From the IMG/VR virus record IMGVR_UViG_3300045988_036717: a stretch of DNA of 38,585 nucleotides. One strand, 5' to 3'. This document shows, piece by piece, positions 3,117 through 36,191 of the stretch. A program made the translations under genes and the position numbers. This DNA comes from a virus. Every line of letters begins with the position of its first letter. Position 1 is the first letter of the stretch. The notes under the pieces are model-generated. The model searched no databases, had not been told where the DNA came from, and worked only from the letters and a program-made list of their open reading frames with translations.

Positions 3117-3131
3117 GTTTCTTTTTGAAAC
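3117..3131 (-). promoter_or_regulatory. GTTTC-N5-GAAAC motif copy (perfect arms)
   Basis: The plus strand reads gtttctttttgaaac. It lies in the leader of the ParB/DpdA operon. Confidence 0.6.
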
Positions 3132-3151
3132 AGAAAAACGGCTATATTCAC

Positions 3152-3181
3152 ATTATAATGCAAAATTTACCGTTTTTCCAA
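3152..3181 (-). promoter_or_regulatory. Predicted sigma-70-type promoter for the deazaguanine operon
   Basis: The minus strand reads TTGGAA (3181-3176), an 18-nt spacer, then TATAAT (3157-3152). Confidence 0.5.
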
Positions 3182-3270
3182 AAAATCATGAGATTTTATT
3201 AATTTTGTGTATTTACTTATGGATGTTACATCTTGGTGTCACACCAGACAATGCCCGTTACCCTCGGGGG

Positions 3271-3651
3271 TTACTTCAGCTTCTCGATTCTATGCATAGC
3301 TAGCTTCTTTAGATATTCTTTTTCAATCATACCTGCATCAGCTAACCTGTGACAGCTTTTGCATAAGCATATAAGGTTATCATCATTCAACCATAGCTCT
3401 GGCTTATCCTTCAGCTTCTCTATGTGATGCACTTCTATGTTACGGTAGTTATATATGCCTTTGTCTTTGCATACTTCACATAGATAGTTTGCATCCTCTC
3501 TGATCTGTTTGCTCTTCTCTGTCCATGCACTCTTGCTTCTCAGCCTTGACTCTTTGTAGCTGTACTTGTAGTGTTTCTTTTCTACATGGCATACATAACC
3601 TTTCGGATGTATCTTTCCACATCTGCTACAAGCATAGTACCCTTGTGCCAT
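3271..3651 (-). CDS. HNH endonuclease (packaging-associated type)
   Basis: CEVCKDKG...IEVHHIEKL...NLICLCKSCH is an HNH/zinc-finger motif. The start overlaps the endolysin stop (TAATG). Confidence 0.85.
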   Translation of the reverse strand: MAQGYYACSRCGKIHPKGYVCHVEKKHYKYSYKESRLRSKSAWTEKSKQIREDANYLCEVCKDKGIYNYRNIEVHHIEKLKDKPELWLNDDNLICLCKSCHRLADAGMIEKEYLKKLAMHRIEKLK

Positions 3652-4724
3652 TACTTAACTCTCAGCTTTTGTCCTGCATAAATGATGTTCGGATTGCTGA
3701 TGCCATTCATAGCCTGTAGCTTCTGCCATGTTGTGCCATATCTGGATGCAATACCTGACAATGTATCACCACTTCGTACAGTGTAATATACTGCCTGAGA
3801 TGCACCTAGCTTCTGGTTGACGATATTCTGAATGGTATTATAGTCATACCCTGCCTGTTCCAGTCTGTTCTTACGGCTGTTACCGTCTCCCCACTGTCCA
3901 GCAATTACCTCGCTTGCAATCTGTTCATTTGACTTTCTGACAGGTGTAACCTTCTTGTTTACAATGTCCTGAATCACATTGTAGTCATATCCTGCTTGTG
4001 TAAGTCTATTCTTGCGATCTTCGCCATTTCCCCAAGCTCCTGCAATAACCTCATCTGCAATCTGCTCATTGCTTTTTTTAACAGGTGTTGGTGTAACTGG
4101 TTTTGTTTCACCGTTTGGATTTGCGTACTTGCGCCATGCTGTAGCATCCATATAGGCAATGTCTAAGTCAAGGTTGCCAGCATATCCTGCCAGTCTTCCA
4201 CAACTTGAATACTGCCTGATAGCACATGTATAATAGCCCTCATTCCATGGATGTTCCTGATATCCTGTCGGATTATTATTCGCATATTGTGCAATCCATA
4301 GTCCATAGTCTCCAATGCCAGAGACTTCGTTATACAAACTTGCTGATGCATAGATTAAAGGTTTAACCCCAGTTTTTTCTACAATTCGATTGCACCAGTC
4401 ACTGATCCATGTTCTAGCTTGACCACCTGTTCCGCACAGTGCATTGCTCTGCCACTCCCAGTCTAAACAAAGAATAGCTTCGCCGATATATCCTTGAATG
4501 TTGCTCAAGAAATAATCTGCTTCTGCTACTGCATTCCCACCATTTGCATAGTGATATACGCCTAATAGCTTTCCATTTGCTTTTGCCTGCTGATAGGCTC
4601 TGTCACAGTCTGGATTCACATAGTATGTACCTTCTGTAGCTTTACAAATTACAAAGTCACATGGTACAACACTTAAATTAATTCCTGCCTGATAGTTTGA
4701 AATATCAATTCCGTTTAATGTCAT
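3651..4724 (-). CDS. Endolysin: GH25 muramidase + 2x CW_7 repeats + LysM
   Basis: [17 protein letters not shown]...ICKATEG...CLDWEW indicates GH25. Two copies of SNEQIA.EVIAG.WG.G..RKNRL.QAGYDYN.IQ.IVN indicate CW_7. C-terminal [28 protein letters not shown] indicates LysM. I trimmed the start to ATG 4724 (AGAGAGGA SD). Confidence 0.9.
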
Positions 4725-4737
4725 TTTTTTGTCCTCT

Positions 4738-5094
4738 CTAATGATTCTGTGCCCGTTCATTTTCCAGCTCCTTGATTCTTGCTTCGTGATCATCCTTGTA
4801 CTTAAACAGTGTTTTTACACGCTCCGAAACAAGAACGAGCTGTTCTGATACTTTTTTTAGTTGTTCAGTCTTTTCACCATTTTCTGCCATCATCTTTTTT
4901 GTTGTGTCACAAAAATCGTCCAGTTTCACATTGATTTTCACAAAATTTTTTTCGACATCCAACTGCCGAGTCTTTTCTCGCTCTGCCTGTTCTTCCTGAC
5001 GCTTTTTGCCACCTGCAAAGGTGTTGATTAACGTACATGCCAGTGATGTCAAGGAAATAAGTAATGCGATGCTTACGCTTGCTTCAGGAGTCAT
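4738..5094 (-). CDS. Membrane-anchored coiled-coil protein in the lysis cassette (holin accessory?)
   Basis: It has an N-terminal hydrophobic helix ([24 protein letters not shown]) followed by a charged coiled-coil region. It lies between the holin and the endolysin. Confidence 0.5.
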
Positions 5095-5298
5095 TTATTC
5101 CACCTTTTTATAGTTTGCTGAGCTAATTTGTAGACATGCTCCAATACATGTACCAACTGCCGAAATAGTTCCTGCAATCGCTTCTGCATAATCCCATCCC
5201 CAAATTTTGCCGAGCGTGATAATTAATGCTGAAAATGCGTTCGTTCCAACAAGTGCAACCCATTTAAGTTTGTCATATGTTTTATTAGAAAATACCAT
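5095..5298 (-). CDS. Holin (Dp-1-like family)
   Basis: MVFSNKTYDKLKWVALVGTNAFSALIITLGKIWGW...AVGTCIGACLQIS has the TYDxLKW N-terminus and two TM segments. ATG 5298 has a GAAGG SD. The track start 5319 has no SD. Confidence 0.7.
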   Translation of the reverse strand: MVFSNKTYDKLKWVALVGTNAFSALIITLGKIWGWDYAEAIAGTISAVGTCIGACLQISSANYKKVE

Positions 5299-5341
5299 AT
5301 TTTGCCTTCTTTCATACATAAATTATACTATAATTATTACC

Positions 5342-5369
5342 AAAAAAAAGGGCTTTTATCCCCTTTTTT
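5342..5369 (-). terminator. Weak A/T-flanked hairpin between the early genes and the lysis cassette
   Basis: The sequence aaaaaaaagggcttttatcccctttttt forms an AAAAGGG/CCCTTTT stem flanked by A and T runs. Confidence 0.35.
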
Positions 5370-5381
5370 CTTTGCCTTTAT

Positions 5382-5549
5382 TTATTTCTGTTCGATAATA
5401 ATTTTTCCTTTTTCTGCCTTCACTTTTATTTCTTTTTCAGGATCAAGCCCAGATTCCGCCACAATCTTTTTTGATATTGTCGTAGTATACGTGTTTACCT
5501 TTAAATCGCCACCTACAGTTCTGTATTTCATTTTTGCAAGTTTAGCCAT
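5382..5549 (-). CDS. Small AbrB/SpoVT/MazE-fold DNA-binding-like protein
   Basis: MAKLAKMKYRTVGGDLKVNTYTTTISKKIVAESGLDPEKEIKVKAEKGKIIIEQK resembles the looped-hinge-helix pattern (tIpkki.e.lGl..g..v.v....gkiiie). ATG 5549 has a GAGAGGA SD. Confidence 0.45.
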   Translation of the reverse strand: MAKLAKMKYRTVGGDLKVNTYTTTISKKIVAESGLDPEKEIKVKAEKGKIIIEQK

Positions 5550-5853
5550 TGTTTTCCTCTCTTTCATCATTCAAATACTCGAACTCTTTCAATAATTCAT
5601 TCTTTGTTTTCTCGAATTCTGATTCAATTTGCTTTTGTACATCAATCTTAGTTTGTCTGAACCATTTCTTTTTGAACTTAGTAACTGCTTCACGATAACG
5701 CTTTTCATCGCAGTCACACGACTGCCACCATTCTAAATCATGTAGCACTTTAACTAAATCTTTCATCATTTCGTTCAATTGAGAATCGAACATTCTGTTA
5801 ACGCATTCTTCTTCGACTCTGCAATATATATAACTATAACTTCCACCACTCAT
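5542..5853 (-). CDS. Hypothetical protein
   Basis: ORF of 103 aa. ATG 5853 has an AAGGAGGA SD. The track start 5856 is a TTG. Confidence 0.6.
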   Translation of the reverse strand: MSGGSYSYIYCRVEEECVNRMFDSQLNEMMKDLVKVLHDLEWWQSCDCDEKRYREAVTKFKKKWFRQTKIDVQKQIESEFEKTKNELLKEFEYLNDEREENNG

Positions 5854-5890
5854 CAAACATCCTCCTTTGCAATTTCTTATTTGTTGTCAT

Positions 5891-6316
5891 TTAAATCCAT
5901 CCTAATTCCTCGCATTGCTTATTAATCGCTCTTAATTCTGCAATAGTAATATCTTTTGGATTTCCAAACCAAGATACATATACTGTCTTTATTTCTAAAT
6001 CAAATTCAATTAACCATTCAATTACATTTCCGTTATGTCTTTCAAATTCAATACATCCATCTTTGATACGCTTTTTATAATCAAGATCATTAAACATCTG
6101 CTCGGCAGTTTTTTCTTCGCATTCCTCAAGCCAATCATGCGATACTCTTCTATATGTATACTTATATTTTCTAGCTTCATATTCAGCTTTGTTTAAATCA
6201 TCAATCAATCTACCATTCGCAACTTCCAATTCGTTGATTCACTCTGAAACAACTAAGGAATAAAGGAGCATTGAAGCTATACCACCTATAAAAATTCCTG
6301 CAAAAAAATAAATCAT
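5891..6316 (-). CDS. Paralog-family protein with N-terminal TM helix, interrupted by in-frame TGA at 6239-6241
   Basis: ATG 6316 has an AAGGAG SD and encodes MIYFFAGIFIGGIASMLLYSLVVSE, followed by TGA. The same frame continues INELEVANGRLIDD...ELRAINKQCEELGWI. The downstream part has only a TTG and no SD. Confidence 0.5.
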
Positions 6317-6546
6317 CCTTCATTCTCCTTTACAAATTCAATTTGTTCGCTTTCAACGCAAAATCTAGCACCATCGCCAAACTGGACATCATAAAGTATA
6401 GGATTTACATAATGATCTTTGCTTATGACGCACGTATGAATCACTTTGCCAATCTGACCGATATATTCTTTTTTTAACTTTCCTGTACTACTAATCAATT
6501 CTTTTTCATACTTATCAGTTAAATACAGTAATCTAGCTTTACGCAT
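6313..6546 (-). CDS. Hypothetical protein
   Basis: MRKARLLYLTDKYEKE... ATG 6546 overlaps the upstream stop (TAATG). Its N-terminus resembles that of 6546-6776. Confidence 0.6.
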   Translation of the reverse strand: MRKARLLYLTDKYEKELISSTGKLKKEYIGQIGKVIHTCVISKDHYVNPILYDVQFGDGARFCVESEQIEFVKENEG

Positions 6547-6776
6547 TATTTGATTACCTCGCAATTTCTTAAAATCTCATTGATTGACACATTATCCGGA
6601 ACATTTCTAAAAAGTCCATATTTCTTTAGTTCCGATAAAAACACACATCTGTTTATTGGCTTATTTCCAATATTTCCTTCATAATCCAGCAATATACAGT
6701 ATTCATTTTGTCTTAGTCTGTATAAAGGCTCCTTGTATTCTTTTCTAGGAAGCATCAATCGTGCTTGCCGAATCAT
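6546..6776 (-). CDS. Hypothetical protein (shares a C-terminal motif with 6773-7360)
   Basis: The C-terminus ...INEILRNCEVIK resembles ...VHEILDNCEVIQ of the upstream gene. Confidence 0.6.
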   Translation of the reverse strand: MIRQARLMLPRKEYKEPLYRLRQNEYCILLDYEGNIGNKPINRCVFLSELKKYGLFRNVPDNVSINEILRNCEVIK

Positions 6777-7360
6777 TGAATAACCTCACAATTGTCTAAG
6801 ATTTCATGTACCTTGGTGAAAGGATCAATGCTCTTGAAATACCCTTTTTCTCTTAATTTTTTTAAGCATTCAATTTCATTCAACAAGCAACATTCTTTGC
6901 AACGATCAAATGTGTTTAATAAATCAAATTCAAATTGATTCAATTTATATTTTGGCTTTTCGTATGGCTGCTTTAACCATCTAAATTTTCCTTCGATACA
7001 ATCACCATTAAAGTCACATTCACTACAACCTGTTCCCAAGCACTGCGTAACTCTTCCATCAACTAGAGCAAAATCACTCATGTTTAGTTTTGACAAGTAT
7101 TCAAAATAATGTTCCAAATTCGTCTCAGTCTTTTTTTCTTCTTCTAACCAACCTAATTCTTTAGCCTGTTGGATAATTGCCTGTAATAAATCTTTCTCGA
7201 TTACATATTCCATATTAGTATCTATGGCGATTCCTTCTTCTAATAAATAAAATGTGACCCTAAAATATCCTCTCCCTAATCTTAGCAAATAATTTATTTC
7301 CTCATTCTCTTCACTTCTCTTATATCTAAGTTCTTCAAACATTTTTCTTGCTTCCATCAT
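6773..7360 (-). CDS. Paralog-family domain fused to a Cys-rich C-terminal region
   Basis: The N-terminus MMEARKMFEELRYKR...LLQAIIQQAKELGWL is the paralog domain. It is followed by CLGTGCSECDFNGDC and CKECC. The ATG pair lies at 7360/7357, and the track start 7366 is a GTG. Confidence 0.6.
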   Translation of the reverse strand: MMEARKMFEELRYKRSEENEEINYLLRLGRGYFRVTFYLLEEGIAIDTNMEYVIEKDLLQAIIQQAKELGWLEEEKKTETNLEHYFEYLSKLNMSDFALVDGRVTQCLGTGCSECDFNGDCIEGKFRWLKQPYEKPKYKLNQFEFDLLNTFDRCKECCLLNEIECLKKLREKGYFKSIDPFTKVHEILDNCEVIQ

Positions 7361-7584
7361 ATCCACCCCAATTCCTTCATCTGCTGTTGAACCGCTTTTA
7401 ACTCATTTGCAGTTAAAGTTTTTATTGAATTTGCCATTCCACATCCCGTATACGAATAAAAAGTTTTATTTTTTAAATTAAATTGAATTATGTGACGCAT
7501 AATACTTCCTTTTTCATAGAAAATGCAATCGCCAAAAGCACGTTTTTTATATCCTAACGATTCAAACATTTCTTTTGCATTCAT
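7357..7584 (-). CDS. Paralog-family protein (75 aa)
   Basis: MNAKEMFESLGYKKR...IQFNLKNKTFY...ELKAVQQQMKELGWI. Its stop forms an ATGA overlap with the next start. Confidence 0.65.
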   Translation of the reverse strand: MNAKEMFESLGYKKRAFGDCIFYEKGSIMRHIIQFNLKNKTFYSYTGCGMANSIKTLTANELKAVQQQMKELGWI

Positions 7585-7837
7585 AAATAAATTCGTCTCC
7601 TAATTCTTCCATTTGTTTTTGAATAGCTAATATCTCTTTGATACTTAAAATATATGGGCAGCATCCACCTTTTGGGCCAAAGTAGTAAATAGCATCATAT
7701 GTTTTATCCTTTAAATCAAACCGTATACAACAGTAACCGATTCCACTAGGCTTTTTATATAATATAAAGCGATCATTTAGTATTCTTTCTTTGTTATAAC
7801 CTAGCCTTTTAAACATTCCTTTAGCAGTTATTTTCAT
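7562..7837 (-). CDS. Paralog-family protein (91 aa)
   Basis: MKITAKGMFKRLGYNKE...IRFDLKDKTYD...ILAIQKQMEELGDEF. Confidence 0.65.
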   Translation of the reverse strand: MKITAKGMFKRLGYNKERILNDRFILYKKPSGIGYCCIRFDLKDKTYDAIYYFGPKGGCCPYILSIKEILAIQKQMEELGDEFIYECKRNV

Positions 7838-8213
7838 GTTCTAATTTTTCCTTTGCTTCTTTATAGAATTTTGCTTTTTCATACAATTGTTTAGCAAGCC
7901 TGCTTATACGCTCACACGTGTTATCAGTGTTTTTCCAATTGATATAAATAATGTTAATGTGATCAATTAATTCATCTTTGGTCATTCTTTTTAAAGTACT
8001 TTTTGAATAAGGATTAAAATGCAAGAAATTAAATGAATTACCATCTAATGGATGTTCTTCTTCAAAGATGTTTTTATAATCTCTTAACTTTTTATCCATT
8101 GATTTAGCTTTACGCTCAATGTAATCCAAGCAATCTTTGATTTCTTTATTATCACCTACCATTGAATCCAAATATTCAATGCATTCGCAAATTGTCATTT
8201 CATCTTGTTTCAT
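7821..8213 (-). CDS. Hypothetical protein
   Basis: ORF of 130 aa in the tightly packed same-strand array, with an ATG start. Confidence 0.55.
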   Translation of the reverse strand: MKQDEMTICECIEYLDSMVGDNKEIKDCLDYIERKAKSMDKKLRDYKNIFEEEHPLDGNSFNFLHFNPYSKSTLKRMTKDELIDHINIIYINWKNTDNTCERISRLAKQLYEKAKFYKEAKEKLEHENNC

Positions 8214-8466
8214 ATGCCTTTATCTCCCTCTTTAAATCATCAATGGCTTTCTTAACATCCTTTAAATCCATATCAAAGTTACTAACTAAATCTGCCATAC
8301 GATTGTTAGAATAGCTCTGTAAAGCCGATTCTAGCGTTGTATGGTATGAGATAGGCTTTTGTACGTCTATCTCATTTCCTTCTTTATCTTTAACCTTTAC
8401 GAACATCACAAGAGCGAATGAACAACCGCTAGAAGTGATTGCATAATTGTTTTGTAATCTAATCAT
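8200..8466 (-). CDS. Hypothetical protein
   Basis: ORF of 88 aa that overlaps both neighbours. Confidence 0.55.
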   Translation of the reverse strand: MIRLQNNYAITSSGCSFALVMFVKVKDKEGNEIDVQKPISYHTTLESALQSYSNNRMADLVSNFDMDLKDVKKAIDDLKREIKAYETR

Positions 8467-9707: not shown

Positions 9708-9720
9708 GATGTTTTCCTCC

Positions 9721-9939: not shown

Positions 9940-10500
9940 TTATCTTAATCCTTTTTCAATATTTTTGAAAATTTGAGCAGTTCCACGAGGTGCTTTATCA
10001 AATTCTTTTACAATGTGAACATATTTTCCACTTAATGATTTCTTTCCGTATTCTGTATGAACCCAATTACCCTTGATGATTCCATAAGCTTCACGATCAA
10101 CTGCTTTGGGATGTTTGCGAGTGCCTTTCCATTCAACATAAGTGATGAAGCATTTTTGAAGTTTTTCTTCTTTTTTTGATTCTTTAGCTTTTTTCGATTC
10201 ACTCATTCTATTGTTTAGTACTTCTACAATTTCTTTTTTCGATAATTCAATAAAATCTTCATCTAAACTATAAAACTCTGTTTCATTGAAATACGTTCCG
10301 GTATGATGCCAGCTTGAATATGCTAGGAAAACTTTTAAAGCATCCTTACTATACTTTTTCAACTCATCGTATTCAAAATCATCCCTATAGTCTAATACTG
10401 TATTAATGATTGCTGTTTTGGTCCATTTTGAAAGTGGCTTCTCACCATTTTCATAAGCAATTACAGCTCTTTCACTCATTCTTTGTCCAACGTATGCCAT
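9940..10500 (-). CDS. Hypothetical protein (186 aa)
   Basis: It is the first gene of a predicted transcription unit with an AAGGAG SD. I recognise no motif. Confidence 0.6.
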   Translation of the reverse strand: MAYVGQRMSERAVIAYENGEKPLSKWTKTAIINTVLDYRDDFEYDELKKYSKDALKVFLAYSSWHHTGTYFNETEFYSLDEDFIELSKKEIVEVLNNRMSESKKAKESKKEEKLQKCFITYVEWKGTRKHPKAVDREAYGIIKGNWVHTEYGKKSLSGKYVHIVKEFDKAPRGTAQIFKNIEKGLR

Positions 10501-10529: not shown

Positions 10530-10552
10530 ATATTACCATATTATGGTAATAT
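10530..10552. promoter_or_regulatory. 23-bp perfect palindrome ATATTACCATA-T-TATGGTAATAT overlapping a predicted promoter
   Basis: Read directly from the sequence. It lies immediately next to the TTGACA -35 (10557-10552) of the 9940-10500 unit. Confidence 0.55.
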
Positions 10553-10575
10553 GTCAATACTTTTTGTAAGTTTTT

Positions 10576-10590
10576 GTTTCTATTTGAAAC
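10576..10590 (-). promoter_or_regulatory. GTTTC-N5-GAAAC motif copy (perfect arms)
   Basis: The plus strand reads gtttctatttgaaac. It lies 18 nt upstream of the TTGACA -35 on the minus strand. Confidence 0.6.
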
Positions 10591-11961: not shown

Positions 11962-11990
11962 ATTATAATATAATATGATAGAAATTGCAC
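11962..11990 (-). promoter_or_regulatory. Predicted promoter
   Basis: The minus strand reads GTGCAA (11990-11985), a 17-nt spacer, then TATAAT (11967-11962). Confidence 0.45.
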
Positions 11991-12008: not shown

Positions 12009-12023
12009 GTTTCTTTTTGAAAC
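12009..12023 (-). promoter_or_regulatory. GTTTC-N5-GAAAC motif copy (perfect arms)
   Basis: The plus strand reads gtttctttttgaaac. It lies 18 nt upstream of the -35. Confidence 0.6.
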
Positions 12024-13836: not shown

Positions 13837-13865
13837 ATTTTATCATCATAATGCGATTAAGTCAA
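13837..13865 (-). promoter_or_regulatory. Predicted promoter of the replication unit
   Basis: The minus strand reads TTGACT (13865-13860), a 17-nt spacer, then TAAAAT (13842-13837). Confidence 0.5.
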
Positions 13866-14260
13866 CACATTTTGCCGACTTTCGTTTCTATTTGAAACTT
13901 CTTGATGTCTTTACTCGTAACGATGCTGATTGTGTAATCTGGATATTTGTATTCAAACAGTTTTTGCTTTAACCGGAAAACGTCCGTAATTACCGCTGTA
14001 GAGCCTTTTACATCTTCAATAATGATTATATCACCATCACACAAGATGTACCTGAAATCGGCTTTATACACGGTTTTACGCCATGTCTTGCCATTCTTCC
14101 TGAATGACGGTATAAGTTCATACTCAGGTTGTAGTTCCAAATCACGAATAACTCCTGCACGTTCAAGAATCTTCAGCTGTACATACCGTTCAGCTTCGAG
14201 CTTTGAATCAAACTTAATGCCATCTGCAACCGTCTTCGTATTGTGATACTTTCTGTACAA
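13862..14260 (-). CDS. DUF1064-like protein (PD-(D/E)XK-fold, resolvase-like)
   Basis: YHNTKTVADGIKFDSKLEAERYVQLK...YKADFRY...IIEDVKG. The start is a TTG with a GAGGTGA SD. Confidence 0.65.
   Translation of the reverse strand: MYRKYHNTKTVADGIKFDSKLEAERYVQLKILERAGVIRDLELQPEYELIPSFRKNGKTWRKTVYKADFRYILCDGDIIIIEDVKGSTAVITDVFRLKQKLFEYKYPDYTISIVTSKDIKKFQIETKVGKMC
13884..13898 (-). promoter_or_regulatory. GTTTC-N5-GAAAC motif copy (perfect arms)
   Basis: The plus strand reads gtttctatttgaaac. It lies 18 nt upstream of the TTGACT -35 and overlaps the last codons of the DUF1064 gene. Confidence 0.6.
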
Positions 14261-14270: not shown

Positions 14271-14594
14271 TCACAGATAGTTTTTCCCGAAAATGTCAAT
14301 GAACTCGCTTGTAGTCAATCCATACTCGGCCATGGCTCTTTTTTGCCCAAGTTTTTTAAGGTGCATATCAAATTCATGGCCCTTACTGCAATGCACACCA
14401 TACTTAGACATGTTGTGATCTTCAGGTTTGATGAATACGACAAGACCATACTTAATTGATTTTTTGCGGTTGGCAGTGCCGAAAAAAATTTCATGCCTGA
14501 CAGTTCCATATAACCGTTTTGAATAATACTGATAACAGTGTTCATTCGTTAAGAACATGCCTTCATGCATGATGCATAACTCTTTCTGAATCAT
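14271..14594 (-). CDS. Conserved-looking phage protein, function unknown
   Basis: RHEIFFGTANRKKSIKYGLVVFIKPEDHN...GVH...MHLKKLGQKRAMAEYG. The start forms an ATGA overlap with the dUTPase stop. Confidence 0.55.
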   Translation of the reverse strand: MIQKELCIMHEGMFLTNEHCYQYYSKRLYGTVRHEIFFGTANRKKSIKYGLVVFIKPEDHNMSKYGVHCSKGHEFDMHLKKLGQKRAMAEYGLTTSEFIDIFGKNYL

Positions 14595-17061: not shown

Positions 17062-17671
17062 GACTGTTCTCCTTTCTCTGCTTCATGATTTTCCCAATCA
17101 ACTCGGAAGCTTTCGACATCGGCATATCTTCCAATTTTTCGATCTTGTTCATCTTTAACAATTTCTCAAGATTCTCGCCTGTATAGTTCTTGCTCAATAC
17201 TTCGACCTGTCTTGGTGATGCCTTGCGCTCAGTGCTGTTCGTTGCTTCATCATCATTGCCATCCGTATCTTCTTCAGTTGCCATGCCAAGGAATGCACCT
17301 AATGAGTAACGCTTTCGGTATGTGATCTCTGCTCCCTCATCCTGAAGCTTCGCACCTTCCTTAACTGCAAACGGGTAAGTGTTTGTCTCGAATACATGCC
17401 CGCTCTTGTGTACCAGAATACAGCGAACACCATTTACGCCGTTCTCATCAACTCCAATCGGCTGTAGCAAGGCAAAATTATTATTTTCTTTAATCTTGTT
17501 TAAGATATTATCAAGTGGTACATAATCAAATGCCTTGTGCATCCATTCCCCTGTTTTTCTATTTTGCACAGAATAGTTGACCTGTGCGGACTTTTCAAGT
17601 CCTCTTAACTGATTTACTAGCTCGATTAAATCAGCTGCTACGTCTTTTGTTATGTTTTCAAAACCTATCAT
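17054..17671 (-). CDS. ERF-family single-strand annealing protein
   Basis: FDYVPLDNILNKIKE...QDEGAEITYRKRYSLGAFLGMATEEDTDGNDD. I trimmed the start to MIGFENITKD. The exact start is uncertain. Confidence 0.6.
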   Translation of the reverse strand: MIGFENITKDVAADLIELVNQLRGLEKSAQVNYSVQNRKTGEWMHKAFDYVPLDNILNKIKENNNFALLQPIGVDENGVNGVRCILVHKSGHVFETNTYPFAVKEGAKLQDEGAEITYRKRYSLGAFLGMATEEDTDGNDDEATNSTERKASPRQVEVLSKNYTGENLEKLLKMNKIEKLEDMPMSKASELIGKIMKQRKENSHE

Positions 17672-17792
17672 TTTTCTTGTTTTCCTTTCTTTTTGAAACA
17701 TCTTTTGAAACATCCATTTCATACTGTTCAATAATTGCTCTTAATTCTTCTGCGTTACCGCTTTTTACAATTTCTGCTACGATTTCAAACAT
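17658..17792 (-). CDS. Possible small ORF (44 aa) between the cro-like gene and ERF
   Basis: My translation is MFEIVAEIVKSGNAEELRAIIEQYEMDVSKDVSKRKENKKNDRF. A GGGAG SD lies 8 nt upstream. It competes with the N-terminal extension of the ERF ORF. Confidence 0.3.
   Translation of the reverse strand: MFEIVAEIVKSGNAEELRAIIEQYEMDVSKDVSKRKENKKNDRF
17685..17699 (-). promoter_or_regulatory. GTTTC-N5-GAAAC motif copy (one arm mismatch) with an adjacent tandem half-site
   Basis: The plus strand reads ctttctttttgaaac, followed by atcttttgaaac at 17700-17711. Confidence 0.45.
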
Positions 17793-17796: not shown

Positions 17797-17991
17797 TCAG
17801 CTCCCAATTATTAAACTTGCATTTTCCTTACCAAATACATTGCAGAACACTTTGACAATCTTTGTAGAAGGATTATGCGTTCCCTGCTCAATACAAGCAT
17901 AATGGCTAGTCGATACCCCAAGCATTTCTGCTACTTCTTTCTGAGTATATCCCTTTGATATTCTGAATGCTTTCAGTTCTGCTCTTTTCAT
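17797..17991 (-). CDS. Cro-like XRE-family HTH regulator
   Basis: MKRAELKAFRISKGYTQKEVAEMLGVSTSHYACIEQG. The SD is AAAGGGGG. It is divergent from the CI-like gene. Confidence 0.8.
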   Translation of the reverse strand: MKRAELKAFRISKGYTQKEVAEMLGVSTSHYACIEQGTHNPSTKIVKVFCNVFGKENASLIIGS

Positions 17992-18015: not shown

Positions 18016-18043
18016 ATTATAAACCCATGTCATCAAATTGCAA
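18016..18043 (-). promoter_or_regulatory. Predicted early (cro-side) promoter
   Basis: The minus strand reads TTGCAA (18043-18038), a 16-nt spacer, then TATAAT (18021-18016). Confidence 0.55.
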
Positions 18044-18074
18044 CTACTTTTCATCTTTTTTTGATTATTTGTTA

Positions 18075-18104
18075 TTGTTTCAAATAGCTACGGTGTGTTA
18101 TCAT
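18075..18104 (+). promoter_or_regulatory. Predicted repressor-side promoter
   Basis: TTGTTT (18075-18080), an 18-nt spacer, then the extended -10 TGTTATCAT (18096-18104). Confidence 0.4.
18077..18091 (+). promoter_or_regulatory. GTTTC-N5-GAAAC-related site in the switch region (imperfect right arm)
   Basis: The plus strand reads gtttcaaatagctac. It lies within the spacer of the repressor-side promoter. Confidence 0.4.
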
Positions 18105-18138: not shown

Positions 18139-18480
18139 ATGATTAACAATAAAGCAATAGGAAGGAAACTCAAAGAACTGCGCAACTCCCGTGATCTTAA
18201 ACAGTCTGAGCTTGCTGAACTTGTCGGACTTTCAAGACCTGCAATATCGAATATTGAGTCTGGAAAACGTTCCTTGACTCTTTCAACTCTGAAACGTTTT
18301 TGCGAGGTTTACGGAATTGATATATCTTACTTTGGAATTGATACGTCAAGCTATGATGAAACTACAGACCTCACACTGCGCATCGAGTCTCTGTTTCACG
18401 ATCTTCCTGAACCTGAGAAGGATGAACTGTATCTGAAGATAATGAAACTGTACCTAGACAGCAAGAATGTTTCTGATTGA
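18139..18480 (+). CDS. CI-like XRE-family repressor (no S24 peptidase domain)
   Basis: IGRKLKELRNSRDLKQSELAELVGLSRPAISNIESGKRSLTLSTLKRF. It is 113 aa and lies adjacent to the integrase. Confidence 0.85.
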   Translation: MINNKAIGRKLKELRNSRDLKQSELAELVGLSRPAISNIESGKRSLTLSTLKRFCEVYGIDISYFGIDTSSYDETTDLTLRIESLFHDLPEPEKDELYLKIMKLYLDSKNVSD

Positions 18481-18483
18481 AAC
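18469..18483. promoter_or_regulatory. GTTTC-N5-GAAAC motif copy (perfect arms) at the 3' end of the repressor gene
   Basis: The plus strand reads gtttctgattgaaac and spans the TGA stop at 18478-18480. Confidence 0.5.
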
Positions 18484-18654
18484 CATCTGTCGAAAAAAAA
18501 GAATTGTCTAATTCATACTCGATTTTAAGATTTTCTTGTTCGGCATACAGATTAAACAACAACGAATATAATTTTTCTGCGTCCATATTTTCACCGCCTC
18601 TCATCGGCTAGTATGGACTGCTTTTTTTATTTTCAAACAAACGGAGGTATTTTT

Positions 18655-30392: not shown

Positions 30393-30406
30393 ATGCAACC
30401 CCCTTC

Positions 30407-30653: not shown

Positions 30654-30987
30654 CGGAACTTTTAGTGCTTTCAACAACAGTTTCGTTTACCTTCTTCGTG
30701 GCTTCAGAAAGCCCAATGTCAGTTATCATTCTTCCTGTCTGCTTCAGTGTCAGTGGCTTTTCACTTGTGCCTTTTTCCTCGTTCTGAATATCAATATACT
30801 CATTGATCATCGCCCAAATTCCGAAAATGATTGCCTTTGCATTTGGCTCTTCATCTTTACTATCTGTGAGTTTGCCCCACGCATCAAGTGTGCCGTATTT
30901 GTCCTGAATAACTGCCATAACGTTCAGATTAAATACAAGCCCGTATGTCTTCCCTTTATATTCAAATTCTTTTGAGATTTCCTTCAT
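30640..30987 (-). CDS. Tail assembly chaperone (gpG-like)
   Basis: It lies between the major tail and tape measure genes. The sequence begins MKEISKEFEYKGKTYGLVFNLNVMAVIQDKYG. Confidence 0.75.
   Translation of the reverse strand: MKEISKEFEYKGKTYGLVFNLNVMAVIQDKYGTLDAWGKLTDSKDEEPNAKAIIFGIWAMINEYIDIQNEEKGTSEKPLTLKQTGRMITDIGLSEATKKVNETVVESTKSSEKNA
30646..30653 (-). promoter_or_regulatory. Slippery heptamer A_AAA_AAC for the G/GT -1 frameshift
   Basis: The minus strand reads TCC GAA AAA AAC GCA TAA. The -1 frame continues into the 30407-30628 ORF. Confidence 0.65.
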
Positions 30988-31000
30988 GTTTGCCTCCTAA

Positions 31001-31027
31001 TAAAATAAGACAGGGACGAACCCTGCC
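31001..31027 (-). terminator. Hairpin terminator/attenuator after the major tail gene
   Basis: The minus strand reads GGCAGGG-uucgu-CCCUGUC followed by UUAUUUUAUU. Confidence 0.55.
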
Positions 31028-31039
31028 TTTAATATTCTT

Positions 31040-31603
31040 TTAAACTGAAGTTTTTGCCATCAGTCCTTCAAGATATGTGACAGCTTCAGTCTTTGTATCA
31101 AACGTGTCTGTCTTTGACCATGTGCCATCAGCCAATGTTGCAACAGTTCCTACAAGCTCAGTTGTACTGAATGATACGCTTTCGCCTTTTGTAGCATCAT
31201 CCTGTGACGGTTCTGAGAACTTAACCTTGCACAGGAACTCTACCGTGTACTTGTAAGCTCCGTTCACCATCTTTGTGACAATTCTTCCGAAACCTACATA
31301 CGGCGCAACATCGTTTGAATTTCTGACAAGCCCTTTCCCACTTTCTGATACCTCATGTCCAAGAAGGTCTGCCATGACCTGCACATCTTCGTTGTCGATT
31401 CCTGCTGTAACAGACCCCTTCTGAAAAGATGTATCGCTCTCAGCCAATGCATCATCTGCATACAAAGACGCATCATTGTTGCTGATATCCACTTTGCATG
31501 AAATAGCCTTGGCTGGCTTTTTCGCGCCATCATAAGTGGCTTTGCCATCTTCCGATTCCGTAAGTTTTGAATATCGGAAGTTATTTAACCCGATTTTAGC
31601 CAT
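31040..31603 (-). CDS. Major tail protein (phi13-like family)
   Basis: MAKIGLNNFRYSKLTESEDGKATYDGAKKPAKAISCKVD... Confidence 0.8.
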   Translation of the reverse strand: MAKIGLNNFRYSKLTESEDGKATYDGAKKPAKAISCKVDISNNDASLYADDALAESDTSFQKGSVTAGIDNEDVQVMADLLGHEVSESGKGLVRNSNDVAPYVGFGRIVTKMVNGAYKYTVEFLCKVKFSEPSQDDATKGESVSFSTTELVGTVATLADGTWSKTDTFDTKTEAVTYLEGLMAKTSV

Positions 31604-31950
31604 TATTCGCTCCTTTCAATTGAGAAACATAATGTTTTGTGATAATACTTTGTATCGTCCTCGTACATATCTTCGGACGATCTGTCCGGTTCCCACATAA
31701 ACCCGACAGCTGTAAGCAATCCCTTTAGCGCCTTGATAATCGGCTTGTAATTGCCTTTTGTGTAAATATCAAAGTCATAATACTCGATATAATTTAGCAA
31801 TTCGTCATCACCGTGTAACGTACTCTCTGCATCTGTTTCCATATACGTGATGTACGTTTCTTCGTTGCCATTATACCGCAAGAACTTGACTGGAATTTTT
31901 TTGCCGTTTACCGTGAAGTCACTCAATGTTTTTTCGATGAGGTTATTCAT
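31603..31950 (-). CDS. Tail completion / tail terminator-like protein
   Basis: The call rests on its position between the gp10-like gene and the major tail gene. It is 115 aa. Confidence 0.5.
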   Translation of the reverse strand: MNNLIEKTLSDFTVNGKKIPVKFLRYNGNEETYITYMETDAESTLHGDDELLNYIEYYDFDIYTKGNYKPIIKALKGLLTAVGFMWEPDRSSEDMYEDDTKYYHKTLCFSIERSE

Positions 31951-32371
31951 CTAAAAGCCCCCCGCTTAAACTCTTCTGCGCTTCTTCCATCGCTTTCATG
32001 ATTTGTGATTTTTTGAAAGACTTTCGGAAAAAAGGATGCTTTGGATATTTCCTTTTGTCACTACCATATTCGAACATGTTAGCAACAAGTGGTGCAGGAG
32101 TCTTCCTTCCATCTTTGTTGATGAAATATCCAGTAATCATGACTTTTGTGTTGATACCATCATCTGACGGCGTTTTATAAACTTTCGACAGTTTCACATG
32201 ACTGCTAAAGCCTGAACTTCTCAGCGACTCTGGAAGTGCTGAAATAACGTTCTTGTATACGACCTCTGCCCCTGCTTTGGTCATGCCACCAAAGATGTGA
32301 TCAAACTGCTTGTCGATGTAAGATATATCTTTCAATACGCTATCATCAATATCAATAACAAGTTTTGCCAT
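31943..32371 (-). CDS. HK97 gp10-family head-tail joining protein
   Basis: The call rests on position and size, plus the sequence FGGMTKAGAEVVYKNV. Confidence 0.55.
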   Translation of the reverse strand: MAKLVIDIDDSVLKDISYIDKQFDHIFGGMTKAGAEVVYKNVISALPESLRSSGFSSHVKLSKVYKTPSDDGINTKVMITGYFINKDGRKTPAPLVANMFEYGSDKRKYPKHPFFRKSFKKSQIMKAMEEAQKSLSGGLLDE

Positions 32372-32697
32372 CAGTGTGTCACTTCCTTTGCCTGAATTTC
32401 CAATTCTACACTGTTTTCGTCCACGTTGTTCAGATACTCAATCGTATATGTTTTGCCGTGAAATTCAATCAGCATATCTCTTGTGATCTCTGTTTTCGGA
32501 TACCTAATAGTGAAGTTGGTGTATGCTTTCTCAAAATCAGAATTGTTCGCAATCAGCGTAAAGCCTTTTGTCGTTCTCACATATGCATATGGTGTAAGAA
32601 TCACCTGTTTCTGTTCTGTCTGAAAGCCATCCTCGTCTGTCACAATCACAGTTTTATAAATTGTGATACGCTTTGAATACTTCCCTGCATTTAACAT
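32371..32697 (-). CDS. Head closure / head-tail adaptor protein
   Basis: MLNAGKYSKRITIYKTVIVTDEDGFQTEQ...YAYVRTTKG... Confidence 0.65.
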   Translation of the reverse strand: MLNAGKYSKRITIYKTVIVTDEDGFQTEQKQVILTPYAYVRTTKGFTLIANNSDFEKAYTNFTIRYPKTEITRDMLIEFHGKTYTIEYLNNVDENSVELEIQAKEVTH

Positions 32698-32707
32698 GAT
32701 TCACACC

Positions 32708-33007
32708 TTACAACAGATTGACGCTATGCATCGCAAGAATGCTCTGAACAGTATTGTTCAAATCCTTACTGTCAACGTACATCGTCCGGTTGTCCCACAT
32801 GTCCTGACAAAGAATAAGCACCACAATCACAAATTCAGGATATTTGTCAACGCCATCATCGTCAAGTCCTGTATAACTTTTGATAAATGAGGTTGCAATA
32901 GAAATAAGCGTGGCCAATGTATTTTTATCACTGTCTGTTACTTCGTCCAGTCTCAAATAATCTGCGACGCTATCCACTGTAATATCACTGACTTTGCTTA
33001 CTTCCAT
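32708..33007 (-). CDS. gp6-like head-tail connector protein
   Basis: VADYLRLDEVTDSDKNTLATLISIATSFIKSYTG. Confidence 0.65.
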   Translation of the reverse strand: MEVSKVSDITVDSVADYLRLDEVTDSDKNTLATLISIATSFIKSYTGLDDDGVDKYPEFVIVVLILCQDMWDNRTMYVDSKDLNNTVQSILAMHSVNLL

Positions 33008-33023
33008 ATTGTTTCACCCCTTC

Positions 33024-34163
33024 TTATTTACCTGCTGCCATCACAAGTTTTGCAAGTTTTTGCGTATCGGCAACCTTTGCATCCCACTCAACGAAAGCTA
33101 GAATTCCAAGTAAATGTTCTTCTGCATATCGTTCTTGTAATACCTGCATGTTAGCATTTTCTGAAACCTTCACAGCTAAACCAGAGAAGTCACCGTAATA
33201 AATGGTTGTTTTTCCTGCAAGCATCTTGTCCATCGCATCAGAGCAATAAACATCCTTGCCTAGAAGTGTATATCCCCACTTTGCTGTAAAGTCACGATTT
33301 AATAAATAATCGCCTTCATTATCTTTTAACTTTCTGATTGCATTTCGAGTTTCACGGTTCATAATCCAAATAGAATTACCCTGATAGTTGTCAATCACCT
33401 TGTCTTGTAAATCCATCAACTCGTCAGATGTAATCTTTGTGGCTGCGGCAGTTGTAACAGTCATATCTGATGTAATGCCCTTCAAACCATCAACCTTACC
33501 TTCTGTACCGAACAAAATCTCATGTTCGAAATACAATGCGATTGCCTGTGCCATTTTTGCTTCGACAAAGCCGACGATGTCAAAGTTTGAGTTGTTAATC
33601 AAGCTCTTTGAGATTTTTGCTAAGCAACGTGCAAGGAATCCGTTAAGTTCAATCTGGCTGATAACAACCTTTCCAGACTCTGCTGTTGTTCCCTCATCCG
33701 CATACTGCATCACGATAGAACTGTTCTGTGCGTCATACTTTGGTAATACTAGCTTGCCCGTGATGTTATAGCGGTCTGCCATAGAGAACACAGGTGAGAT
33801 TTCGATAACTTGAGAAATGATTTCATTCCAAACAGTTGTCGGAATAAGTGTTTTTGCATCGGCAGGCATTGTCGGTGTGTCAGTATTCACAATACCACGA
33901 ATTGCATTCTCGAATGTTTTGCGATCTTTTTCAGCATTTGTCATTTCAACATGTGGTGCAGGAACTTCCTTCATGCTCATGCCTGCCATATGGTCATACA
34001 TAGCAACAGTTGCATCAATGTCCTTGACTTCCTTTTCAAGGTCTGCAAACTGATTCTTTTCATCTTCAGATGGTAATCTGTTTTCTGCCTTTGCAGTTGT
34101 CAACAAGCTCTCCATCTGAGCGACTTTTGAATTTCGATTTTCGATGAGTTCTTTTACGTTCAT
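33024..34163 (-). CDS. Major capsid protein, HK97 family
   Basis: 379 aa with a coiled-coil delta-like N-terminus. It lies directly after the ClpP-type protease. Confidence 0.85.
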   Translation of the reverse strand: MNVKELIENRNSKVAQMESLLTTAKAENRLPSEDEKNQFADLEKEVKDIDATVAMYDHMAGMSMKEVPAPHVEMTNAEKDRKTFENAIRGIVNTDTPTMPADAKTLIPTTVWNEIISQVIEISPVFSMADRYNITGKLVLPKYDAQNSSIVMQYADEGTTAESGKVVISQIELNGFLARCLAKISKSLINNSNFDIVGFVEAKMAQAIALYFEHEILFGTEGKVDGLKGITSDMTVTTAAATKITSDELMDLQDKVIDNYQGNSIWIMNRETRNAIRKLKDNEGDYLLNRDFTAKWGYTLLGKDVYCSDAMDKMLAGKTTIYYGDFSGLAVKVSENANMQVLQERYAEEHLLGILAFVEWDAKVADTQKLAKLVMAAGK

Positions 34164-34933
34164 TTTTTTGCCCCTCCGTCATTCTTTAATGAACTAATAA
34201 TATTCTCGTATGCCGAATAATCAAGCACACGATCCTCGACAGACTTTTTAGTCTGTTTTGGTCTTTTTAGTGTATCTGGCACATGCTTATAATTTCTAAA
34301 CAAGTCTGTTGCACATGCCTGTACATCCTTCACTGTTTCAAGTGCATTCACATTGAAATAATTCCCGATGTACATATCATCATCTGCATTACCGCTGAAC
34401 CACGTTTCGTTGTTCACCAGCTCTGCGATTTTTTCTGCTGTGATTCCTTCTTTTGCCTTTGCTTCATACATTGGCAACATCGTTCCGCTTTCAATCAGAT
34501 TGAGTGTGTCAATGTCATGTTGTAGCTCGTTAGCATTTCCATATGCAAACGTCATTGGCTTGTGAATCATCAGCACAGAATTTTTGTAAATGTTAATATC
34601 GTCTGCAACCATGGCAAGATATGTAGCGGCACTTGCACACAATCCATCAATGTACGCATGAATCTTTGCTCCGCTATTCTGTCTGAATCTTTTCAACATG
34701 CTGACCATTGCGGAACTTGCAAACACTGAGCCACCGCCTGAGTTGATGTAGATATTAAAATCTGTCACACCGTTCAAGCTGTCAATCTCTGCCTTAAATG
34801 CGTTTGTGTCAACTGCTGTTTCTGATTTCTCACCAGTCCACCAGTCCTTCGTGTTCTCATCAACAATATCGCCATAAACATAAAAATCAGCGCTTGTTTT
34901 CGTCAGATTCTTCAAGTACTTGTAATTCATCAT
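34160..34933 (-). CDS. ClpP-family prohead protease
   Basis: INSGGGSVFASSAMVSMLKRF...IDGLCASAATYLAMVADD...VLMIHKP. The start is probably the ATG pair at 34933/34930 (AGGGGG SD). Confidence 0.85.
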   Translation of the reverse strand: MMNYKYLKNLTKTSADFYVYGDIVDENTKDWWTGEKSETAVDTNAFKAEIDSLNGVTDFNIYINSGGGSVFASSAMVSMLKRFRQNSGAKIHAYIDGLCASAATYLAMVADDINIYKNSVLMIHKPMTFAYGNANELQHDIDTLNLIESGTMLPMYEAKAKEGITAEKIAELVNNETWFSGNADDDMYIGNYFNVNALETVKDVQACATDLFRNYKHVPDTLKRPKQTKKSVEDRVLDYSAYENIISSLKNDGGAKK

Positions 34934-36152
34934 CTGCCCCCTGTTCAGTTTCTTCAACTTTCTCAGCCGTTTCTTCTTCTTCATTTCCACCTGTCACCTG
35001 TCCGGTGTTTGGAGTGTAATACGTTCCGGTTTCAATATCATACAGAACTGCTCCAAGTCCAACATTGATCACGTCCATACCCTCAATGTAATTGAGATTT
35101 TCCATACGGCGCAATTCGTTTATCGTCATAAGTCCTGTATCTTTTGCAACCTTGTAAGCATCGAATCTCTCTTTGATGCTTGCCTTCACAATTTCTTTCG
35201 TATCAAATTCAAAGAAGAAGTTTTTCTTTTCTTTTTCTAACAGCAACGTGCTGTTTAGCGCTGTCTCAAATGCTTTAATAATCGGATATATCGCTTCCTT
35301 AAATGTCAGATTGAAATCACTATGAATGTGGAAAACTCCATTGATTTCATCCTGTAATGTTTTCTTCGACTCATTCAACTGCATTTCAACAGAACTGTTT
35401 GACGACTCCTGAAACTTGATGCCGTTATTCAAGACCATGACGGACTCGGTGTTGTTGGCATATAACCTTTTCCATGCTTCTTTCAGCTTGTCGATTTCTT
35501 CCTGTCCTAAACGTCTTTCGGCTTGTAAGAATCCTTTTTTATTACCACCTGTCTGAACCAGTCCAAGCTGATACACCAACGTACTGTATGCCGTTTCAAG
35601 TGCTTTTGAAATTTCTTCCGTCAATCCCTTTCCGCTTGCTCCGTCTTTGGTATTTCTCAAGAGTTTTACCATGTTCCACGGATAGATTTTATCCGTGCCA
35701 ACATAGAACTGTACGAAGCGATTCATCGGGTCGGAATTTGACCACACAGTGACATTTATATCTGGAATATATTTCAGTGCTGTTACGTTGTTCTGTCTGT
35801 CTATCTGGATGTAACAATATCCACCTTTGCCGAGTAAATAATCCTCGACCATGGCCTTTTTTGTCTGAAACCCGTCAAGCGTGTTTCCTGTGTCACCGTT
35901 CAACATTCGTACACGGCTGTCATTCTGCACTTCCTCAACTTTGCCTTTCTTGTACTTGTAAAGTTTAACAGGCATTGCAGCAATCGACCCACTGATAAAA
36001 TCAACAGCGCCTGATACGGCAGGAAGCGTGAGTGCCTTTTCCCTCGTGATTGTCTCATTATTGAGCAATGCCGATAACAGCACATCGTCAAGCTGAACAC
36101 TTTGATCGTTAAGATTTATTTTATTCTTAAATATTTTTTTGAATAGTGCCAC
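34887..36152 (-). CDS. Portal protein (HK97 family)
   Basis: The call rests on position and size. The probable start is GTG 36152 (VALFKKIF, GGGTGG SD). The track extension to 36215 covers a promoter-like region. Confidence 0.8.
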   Translation of the reverse strand: MALFKKIFKNKINLNDQSVQLDDVLLSALLNNETITREKALTLPAVSGAVDFISGSIAAMPVKLYKYKKGKVEEVQNDSRVRMLNGDTGNTLDGFQTKKAMVEDYLLGKGGYCYIQIDRQNNVTALKYIPDINVTVWSNSDPMNRFVQFYVGTDKIYPWNMVKLLRNTKDGASGKGLTEEISKALETAYSTLVYQLGLVQTGGNKKGFLQAERRLGQEEIDKLKEAWKRLYANNTESVMVLNNGIKFQESSNSSVEMQLNESKKTLQDEINGVFHIHSDFNLTFKEAIYPIIKAFETALNSTLLLEKEKKNFFFEFDTKEIVKASIKERFDAYKVAKDTGLMTINELRRMENLNYIEGMDVINVGLGAVLYDIETGTYYTPNTGQVTGGNEEEETAEKVEETEQGADDELQVLEESDENKR

Positions 36153-36176
36153 TCTCGTTACCACCCTTTTATAGTA

Positions 36177-36191
36177 TTTTCTATTTGAAAC
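36177..36191 (-). promoter_or_regulatory. GTTTC-N5-GAAAC motif copy (one arm mismatch) upstream of the portal gene
   Basis: The plus strand reads ttttctatttgaaac. It lies 14 nt downstream of a predicted -10. Confidence 0.45.

Follow-up and report, generated by a model that had tools for sequence, protein, structure and literature searches.

A conserved, oriented 15-bp element at gene boundaries of a gut phage lineage and its candidate CI-like binder

The viral sequence IMGVR_UViG_3300045988_036717 from IMG/VR, a stretch of 38,585 nt that was analysed at its full length and is called the window below, carries repeated copies of a 15-bp motif, GTTTC-N5-GAAAC, which is a conserved, oriented, lineage-specific DNA element at gene boundaries. 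We posit, with a confidence that stands at about an even balance, that these copies are dispersed operators, and possibly roadblocks as well, at which the CI-like XRE repressor of the phage itself binds. The arrangement is most likely of a known kind, that of phage repressor sites scattered over a genome, and new for this uncultured gut phage lineage.

Copy number, orientation and conservation of the motif

The exact pattern occurs five times in the window, at 3117, 10576, 12009, 13884 and 18469; dinucleotide-preserving shuffles put the chance level at 0.06, and none of 100 shuffles reaches five. With up to one mismatch there are nine matches against 1.66 expected, among them 12891, 17685 and 36177. 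The original prediction, made from the letters of the window, had listed these five perfect and three one-mismatch copies, had estimated 0.04-0.1 chance hits and had named enrichment over shuffled controls as a check; pattern counts recover all eight copies, and the shuffles bear out both the estimate and the enrichment. An extra one-mismatch match at 6236 (GATTCACTCTGAAAC) lies within a gene, has a spacer that is not A-rich and is probably a chance occurrence, whereas a copy at 18077 has two mismatches and a spacer reversed in orientation relative to the other copies. The window holds nine copies in total, six of them in intergenic DNA.

Read in gene sense, on the - strand, the copies follow GTTTCAAA(A/T)AGAAAC. 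The asymmetric unit, GTTTCAAAWAGAAAM, is a quasi-palindrome whose GTTTC and GAAAC arms are 10 bp apart, and every window match to its asymmetric core GTTTCAAANNGAAA with at most one mismatch (8 of 8, the both-strand expectation being 0.79) falls on the gene-sense strand, in agreement with the predicted A-rich spacer of fixed orientation relative to the genes. The motif is a real, strongly non-random feature. A literature search on its sequence found nothing, and a scan of viral contigs for the exact 15-mer returned mostly single chance matches among the matches listed.

Close relatives of the window are 40 viral contigs from one metagenome, found with the DnaC-like protein at 84-96% protein identity. 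They hold 169 perfect copies, all with spacers that are A-rich in gene sense (AAAAA, AAATA, AAAGA or, at the CI stop codon, AATCA), and the strand counts of the core are 174 sense to 0 opposite. A perfect copy follows the DnaC-like stop codon by 6-9 nt in 40 of 40 relatives despite different downstream genes. The copy between the large terminase gene (terL) and the portal gene, with its mismatch at the final A, is identical in 43 of 43 relatives with the gap aligned, the 17685 copy is conserved in 34 relatives, and the 18077 copy is kept as well, in some relatives with only one mismatch (GTTGC...GAAAC). Presence in related phages, the other check named at the outset, is borne out by this retention of the same positions in the 40 relatives.

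At many sites in the close relatives the motif is the first part of a module of about 70 bp, in which it is followed by AAAA, seven variable bases, AAAAAGTA, the -35 hexamer, 17 nt and the -10 hexamer. Motif and -35 hexamer stand 18 nt apart in about 91 of the 157 unique contexts, which places the motif centre near -61, and on inspection the remaining contexts mostly have the same 18-nt spacing, missed by a crude scorer. Variant gaps are 8 nt (relatives L004, L009, L014 and L023) and, in one context, 28 nt. About one-quarter of the close-relative contexts have only a ribosome-binding site downstream and no promoter, and several copies come directly after an intrinsic terminator, that is, between terminator and promoter. 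Among 111 unique modules the information content is 0.68 bits per position in the seven-base stretch, 1.39 in the -35 hexamer and about 1.95 in the arms, the last value being inflated because the modules were chosen by the motif. The modules sit between different genes in different relatives. Alignment break points near copies number 299 against 140 expected, a 2.1-fold enrichment that any intergenic DNA might show. Motif and promoter travel as a cassette of about 70 bp at module boundaries and so mark where the gene cassettes of relatives differ.

The element extends well past these relatives, into about 16 more distant lineages in all. A second phage group, from other metagenomes and with a portal protein 68% identical, carries the identical 15-mer, again read in gene sense and immediately behind stop codons; it follows the major capsid gene, precedes the tape-measure gene and recurs downstream of cro. 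With the CI N-terminus and CI homologues as queries, about 14 further lineages were reached, of 26-49% GC, in which copies occur at a density of 4-10 per 15-20 kb; L401, L403 and L404, with GC of up to 49%, also have the motif. In 11 CI-family lineages (203 kb, 26-43% GC) the exact core occurs 35 times on the early-gene sense strand and never on the opposite strand, whereas control loci from unrelated Firmicutes phages and prophages, gathered with DnaC and portal queries and amounting to about 1.9 Mb, contain no exact core. All five copies of the integrated prophage L393 are inside the prophage, with none in 8 kb of host flank. The last base of the motif is often A or T in other lineages, making the element only a quasi-palindrome. 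Of the 69 unique sites in other lineages, 45 lack any promoter within 45 nt; at promoter-linked sites the gap is 16-19 nt in 13-14 cases and 26-28, 34 or 38-39 nt in the others, and the motif-to-promoter spacing is kept in distant lineages although the intervening sequence has diverged. The after-cro copy equivalent to 17685 and an orthologue of the 18469 copy (GTTTCAAA..., at the CI 3' end) recur in other lineages, and every lineage examined has degenerate or perfect copies in the switch region and at the CI 3' end.

Copies and promoters across the window

The motif copies of the window, the predicted promoters beside them and the genes of the lysogeny switch are as follows.

3117-3131, - strand: motif copy GTTTCAAAAAGAAAC in the leader of the ParB-like/7-deazaguanine/late operon, 20 nt after a -10 hexamer
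3152-3181, - strand: predicted promoter TTGGAA-18-TATAAT, in front of the 3117 copy
10530-10557, - strand: predicted promoter TTGACA-16-TAATAT, with TG
10576-10590, - strand: motif copy GTTTCAAATAGAAAC, ending 18 nt before TTGACA
11962-11990, - strand: predicted promoter GTGCAA-17-TATAAT, separated from the 12009 copy by 18 nt
12009-12023, - strand: motif copy GTTTCAAAAAGAAAC, just after the DnaC-like stop codon
12891-12905, - strand: one-mismatch motif copy GTTTCAAATAGAAGC in the O-like/DnaC-like intergenic gap, with the ATG 19 nt further on
13837-13865, - strand: predicted sigma-A promoter TTGACT-17-TAAAAT, with TG, preceding the replication genes (O-like, DnaC-like)
13843-13859: palindrome TAATC-N7-GATGA, in the spacer of the replication-gene promoter
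13884-13898, - strand: motif copy GTTTCAAATAGAAAC within the final codons of the RusA-like gene, ending 18 nt before the -35 hexamer of the replication-gene promoter, a spacing kept in relatives
17685-17699, - strand: motif copy GTTTCAAAAAGAAAG with one mismatch, 13 nt before the ERF start codon, inside a 41-codon open reading frame (ORF; 17670-17792)
17797-17991, - strand: Cro-like HTH_3 gene, 64 aa, transcribed from P_R (18016-18043)
18077-18091, + strand: degenerate motif copy GTTTCAAATAGCTAC in CI-gene orientation, 33 nt upstream of the P_R -35 hexamer
18139-18480, + strand: CI-like XRE-family repressor gene, 113 aa, with HTH_3 and a helical C-terminal domain; candidate motif binder
18371-18586, - strand: small ORF facing the CI-like gene, with overlap at the gene's 3' end; in other lineages its length is 36-44 aa
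18469-18483, - strand: perfect-arm motif copy with spacer AATCA in - sense, overlapping the CI stop codon and within the convergent small ORF
36177-36191, - strand: motif copy GTTTCAAATAGAAAA, last base A, in the large terminase/portal gap, 14 nt after a -10 hexamer
36206-36234, - strand: predicted promoter TTGATA-17-TATATT, with TG, in the 3' end of the terminase gene

Each lytic promoter predicted in intergenic DNA of the window is accompanied by one nearby copy. At the three internal early promoters the copy lies near -61, at the upstream edge of an A-tract, an UP-like region; the motif ends exactly 18 nt before TTGACA (10557), GTGCAA (11990) and TTGACT (13865), as had been proposed, and a similar AAAA...AAAAGTA stretch, likewise anticipated, lies between motif and -35 hexamer at 13884, 12009 and 10576. 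The 12891 copy has no promoter downstream in the window, and some relatives have a full promoter module there. Two further palindromes belong to these promoters as separate observations: the 10557 promoter has its spacer taken up by ATTACCATAATATGGTAAT, a perfect palindrome of 8+3+8 (10532-10550), and the 12009-type promoters of relatives have CATATTATG at the equivalent position.

Other copies follow promoters rather than precede them. The predicted copy in the leader of the deazaguanine operon is there, at 3117, downstream of TTGGAA-18-TATAAT, with flanking T and A runs that lengthen its palindrome; the 36177 copy is in the terL/portal gap as claimed, and it can be added that it lies downstream of a promoter, in its leader. 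Of the short intergenic gaps in which copies were said to precede start codons, that between the O-like and DnaC-like genes stands, whereas the copy in front of ERF occupies no true intergenic gap, being inside the 41-codon ORF. The "adjacent half-site" noted at 17685 is explained by a 12-nt tandem duplication, two copies of GATGTTTCAAAA at 17691-17714 within that ORF.

Around the lysogeny switch, two copies bracket the CI-like gene, as the original prediction had it: that at 18077 before the gene and that at 18469 over its stop codon. The former lies 4 nt upstream of a 9-nt TGtTATCAT element (18096-18104), 7 nt before its TATCAT hexamer; the element is likely the CI promoter, and the copy, besides lying upstream of P_R, overlaps this likely CI promoter.

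The window is a temperate siphovirus-type genome of 38% GC with nearly all genes on the - strand. In - sense the order begins with the small and large terminase, portal, head and tail genes, continues with a serine integrase gene and the CI-like HTH_3 gene (these two on the + strand), the Cro-like gene, ERF, exonuclease, SSB, NinB, dUTPase and RusA and then with the O-like initiator, the DnaC-like loader, many small ORFs, holin, endolysin and HNH, and ends with a ParB_N protein and the 7-deazaguanine set (DpdA-like, QueC and a radical-SAM protein). A nucleotide search of the early region against isolated phages gave no match; the portal protein is 65% identical to portals of Lactobacillus delbrueckii phages, and one related contig is a metagenome-assembled genome labelled Anaerocolumna. 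The lysis cassette (Dp-1-type holin and endolysin, 3651-5298) lies between the early accessory genes and the HNH/late leader, not after the tail genes; in L019 it is directly upstream of cro (3727-5274), where the lysogeny module would be.

Candidate binder and competing explanations

Of the three explanations in the original prediction, operators or stoperators for the CI- or Cro-like protein, an activator site and an antitermination hairpin, the operator idea is best supported in its CI half; the Cro half fares worse. The motif tracks one CI-like XRE family across diverged lineages, and this family, with 54-74% full-length identity and a shared recognition helix, SR[PS]A[IVM][SC]NIE, is common to all motif-bearing lineages, whereas their Cro-like proteins are of at least three types with differing recognition helices. 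No regulator-like protein other than CI is common to all motif-bearing lineages compared, and among about 30 small early ORFs scanned against Pfam and PHROG no additional DNA-binding protein was recognised; a protein at 14271-14594, of unassigned function, is common to most lineages and has no DNA-binding signature. The operator reading rests further on the single orientation of the motif and on its positions in gaps, in leaders, over the CI promoter and at the CI 3' end.

A structural model of the CI-like protein (predicted local distance difference test score, pLDDT, of 81) has a helix-turn-helix (HTH) domain followed by two long C-terminal helices and no peptidase domain. Both by sequence and by fold the protein comes closest to 9sf2, the repressor of phage phi106 with AimX, at about 30% identity; C-proteins and SinR (1b0n) are also among the matches. 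The small ORF convergent with the gene is a candidate antirepressor by layout only; elsewhere it occupies 8575-8685 in L394, 10334-10447 in L397 and 10342-10455 in L399, with the conserved N-terminus MDxxK[FL]YxLLxxLYxxQE.

How would CI act from such sites? The spacing of the half-sites, 10 bp apart, suggests that it would bind as a dimer; binding itself and a repressive effect are steps that we infer. In a lysogen, repressor dimers or oligomers would occupy the dispersed sites and could (i) dampen initiation at the -61 sites by blocking upstream contacts of RNA polymerase, (ii) block transcription from the leader copies of the late/ParB and portal promoters, (iii) stop read-through at gene boundaries such as O/DnaC and cro/ERF and (iv) autoregulate CI, at its own promoter, and the convergent small-ORF region. 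Least secure in this mechanism is the direction of regulation, negative or positive, at the -61 sites.

Several observations weigh against assigning the motif to CI. Six relatives that lack part or all of CI, at about 9% divergence from their nearest CI-bearing relatives, keep perfect copies; such retention fits the precedent of mycobacteriophage D29, described below, and also fits a CI-independent function. Motif-bearing lineages also share tail and integrase genes, which makes the co-occurrence of CI and motif partly a matter of common descent. L399 and L400, which have the only clearly divergent recognition helix (ARSTMSNIE), lack the canonical motif, and their replacement sites are few and heterogeneous. 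The switch region offers a competing site: TAATC-N7-GATGA, at 18051-18067 just upstream of the P_R -35 hexamer and at 13843-13859 in the spacer of the replication promoter, could be the true CI operator. In the form TAATC-N7-GATKA it has two exact copies, both at promoters, and its one-mismatch matches are not enriched (8 against 8.8 expected); it could serve the Cro-like protein as operator or be a further site for CI, and other lineages have a different palindrome at equivalent places, such as ATTGTGATACAAT in L375. No copy of the 15-bp motif overlaps the P_R core, the nearest being 33 nt upstream of the -35 hexamer and oppositely oriented, and -61 is an activator-type position, not a classical repressor position.

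Two side observations concern the phages just mentioned. In L399 and L400 a 6+5+6 palindrome, GTTTTC-TTTTA-GAAAAC, lies near 10480-10500, by the integrase start, and the promoter-linked sites read GTTGCAAATAG(A/C)AAA; these sites may represent a changed operator. Loss of the lysogeny module has occurred several times, each independently: L003 and L011 have a partial deletion, L018, L019 and L022 have lost the whole module, and in L040 and in the second group (L215/L382) the CI N-terminus is fused to the integrase C-terminus. All of these retain the Cro-like gene and motif copies.

The geometry itself invites another explanation, a class-I-type activator site at which a phage protein, the CI-like protein itself or an early protein, recruits RNA polymerase from -61, the leader and gap copies being secondary. 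A centre near -61.5, or at whole-turn steps further upstream, is the mark of CRP-type class-I sites; the 18-nt gap places the motif centre near -61, with variant gaps of 8 and 28 nt, and the persistence of this spacing across distant lineages, with the rare variants on the same helix face, argues for an activator, as do the A-tracts between motif and -35 hexamer, which resemble an UP-like element. XRE relatives such as controller (C) proteins are known to activate from upstream sites. However, a class-I site should pair with an activator-dependent promoter, and 45 of the 69 other-lineage sites and about one-quarter of the close-relative sites have no promoter downstream; where promoters are present their hexamers are near consensus, often with TG, and should not need an activator. 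The 3117 and 36177 copies lie downstream of promoters, and CI-deleted variants keep their promoters, making CI at least no essential activator. The proposed geometry, with a centre that had been put near -62 and lies near -61, is real and conserved but explains only part of the sites, and we consider an activator unlikely. Unlikely to a similar degree is a binder other than CI, be it the Cro-like protein, an unrecognised small phage protein or a conserved host regulator. The CI-less variants that keep Cro and perfect copies speak for such a binder, as do the many small early ORFs without a recognisable family and the wide distribution of the 14271-14594 protein; yet the motif is identical in lineages whose Cro recognition helices differ, the 14271 protein lacks a DNA-binding signature, and absence of the motif from the control loci and the L393 host flank, together with its persistence at 26-49% GC, argues against a host factor.

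It is less probable still that no dedicated binder exists and that the motif is a third phased A-tract with conserved arms, giving RNA polymerase curved upstream DNA in a self-propagating promoter cassette copied by recombination at module boundaries. A-tracts do recur about 10 bp apart, in the motif spacer, in the AAAA after the motif and in AAAAAGTA before the -35 hexamer; the same cassette stands behind different upstream genes or terminators and before different downstream genes; and break points are enriched near copies. Any intergenic DNA would show that enrichment, however, and the arms are more conserved than the -35 hexamer across very different base compositions, many copies have no downstream promoter, and the switch-region and CI 3'-end copies are outside such cassettes. 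The least credible of the alternatives, to which we give very little weight, is an RNA-level element, a 5-bp stem with an A-rich pentaloop that would act in boxB-like antitermination or as a signal for mRNA processing or stability. Constant sense orientation, positions after stop codons and before ribosome-binding sites and a 5+5+5 layout as in lambda boxB are what such an element would have; several arm variants would be G-U wobbles in RNA, and the late-leader copy at 3117, the only one with a longer stem, extends to a hairpin of -10.3 kcal/mol. Against this stand a minimal hairpin of -2.2 kcal/mol, compared with -7.9 for lambda boxB, and a closing G-C pair that has become G-A or G-T in most other-lineage copies. 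There are no double compensatory changes, and disruptive single-arm variants are about as many as wobble-compatible ones; copies between terminators and promoters are in DNA that would be little transcribed, and the copy of the switch region lies over a promoter, not a transcript. The weak stem, the lost closing pair, the lack of covariation and the terminator-promoter positions disfavour the hairpin that had been suggested, and function at the DNA level is much more likely than function in RNA.

Three further candidates were rejected. A promoter for another sigma factor fails because nothing -10-like occurs at a fixed distance in the promoter-less gaps; the boxes of the host regulators CodY, LexA, SinR and Spo0A and the GAAAC -35 element of extracytoplasmic function (ECF) sigma factors differ in spacing or sequence, and the motif is absent from control prophages; and a parS site, the 16-bp palindrome TGTTNCACGTGAAACA, has arms 4 bp apart, whereas those of the motif are 5 bp apart with an A/T spacer. 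The suggested likeness to a parS half-site finds no support in this arm spacing or in the ParB-like protein of the window, which matches ParB_N only, whereas a parS-binding ParB has an HTH domain. A separate, perfect parS-like palindrome, TGTTCCACGTGGAACA, does occur at 3086-3101, where in gene sense it follows the 3117 copy by 15 nt and stands just upstream of the genes for the ParB_N-only protein and the DpdA/QueC/QueE-like proteins; it is kept despite a different downstream gene in L015, L031, L032 and L035.

Known systems and biological meaning

If the motif is a dispersed CI operator, the closest system in mode of action would be the operators and stoperators of Cluster A mycobacteriophages, although the element of the window is not a member of that family. 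For the Cluster A repressors, L5 gp71 and that of TipsytheTRex, a short site is repeated genome-wide at promoters and in short intergenic gaps, oriented with transcription; D29 has lost its repressor and yet keeps stoperators, and recombination between sites occurs (PMC9283540, PMC5712189). The L5-type site is 13 bp and fully asymmetric and is bound by a monomer with an HTH and a "stoperator" domain, with more than 20 sites per genome, one of them over P_left. The window motif is likewise multi-copy at promoters and gaps, transcription-oriented and linked to a candidate immunity repressor, and, as in D29, CI-deleted relatives keep copies. Unlike the L5 site, it is a 15-bp quasi-palindrome whose candidate binder is a small XRE protein of an unrelated family with a putative helical oligomerisation domain, and its roughly nine sites in 38.6 kb include none over the P_R core and, across the lineage, many at a fixed -61. 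Repression by one protein from many genome-wide sites, several outside the immunity region, is also known for P1 C1, the conserved inverted repeats of phiC31 and phi105, whose sequences and protein families differ from those of the window; we know of no fixed -61 geometry in these systems.

The CI-like protein itself appears, from its model, closest to AimC- and SinR-type XRE repressors. Like AimC of phi106 and SinR, it has an XRE HTH followed by C-terminal helices, putatively for oligomerisation, a length in the range of about 110-130 aa and no peptidase domain. The phi106 preprint describes a repressor dimer whose oligomerisation is blocked by the small antirepressor AimX (bioRxiv 10.1101/2025.11.23.689978), and the small ORF that converges on and overlaps the repressor gene in the window resembles the aimX/aimC layout given there. 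Unlike in phi106, no aimR or aimP lies by the small ORF of the window, and repressor identity is only about 30%; dispersed operators are not described for AimC in the accessible part of that preprint.

Two other comparisons concern the motif as part of a cassette and as a hairpin. The PeSLs of T4-type phages are short conserved promoter cassettes with a palindrome that flank variable accessory genes and mark where relatives differ (PMC2839356); their stem-loop terminates transcription effectively, and they work without a repressor of their own. Motif-promoter modules may resemble them, as they lie between different genes in different relatives, whereas the palindrome here is too weak for termination, precedes the promoter and is also found where there is no promoter. 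With lambda nut boxB the motif shares a 15-nt length, 5-nt arms, an A-rich 5-nt centre and sense orientation; it differs in its weak stem and its non-conserved closing pair, in copies upstream of promoters or after terminators and in copy number (9 versus 2).

A bolder proposal, which we find doubtful though worth stating, is that this gut Firmicutes siphovirus lineage independently evolved genome-wide, stoperator-type silencing with a small dimeric SinR/AimC-like XRE repressor in place of the two-domain mycobacteriophage monomer, and that its operator doubles as the fixed -61 edge of a mobile promoter cassette. One 15-bp element would then link immunity and the control of all lytic promoters to modular gene shuffling. 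If CI does bind the motif, distributed operator/roadblock control would not be peculiar to actinobacteriophages, and these uncultured gut phages would have a simple regulatory code, a 15-bp word by every lytic promoter, from which promoters, operon boundaries and immunity groups could be predicted in metagenomic contigs, and the conserved -61 geometry would offer a test case for a small XRE repressor acting from an activator-type position.

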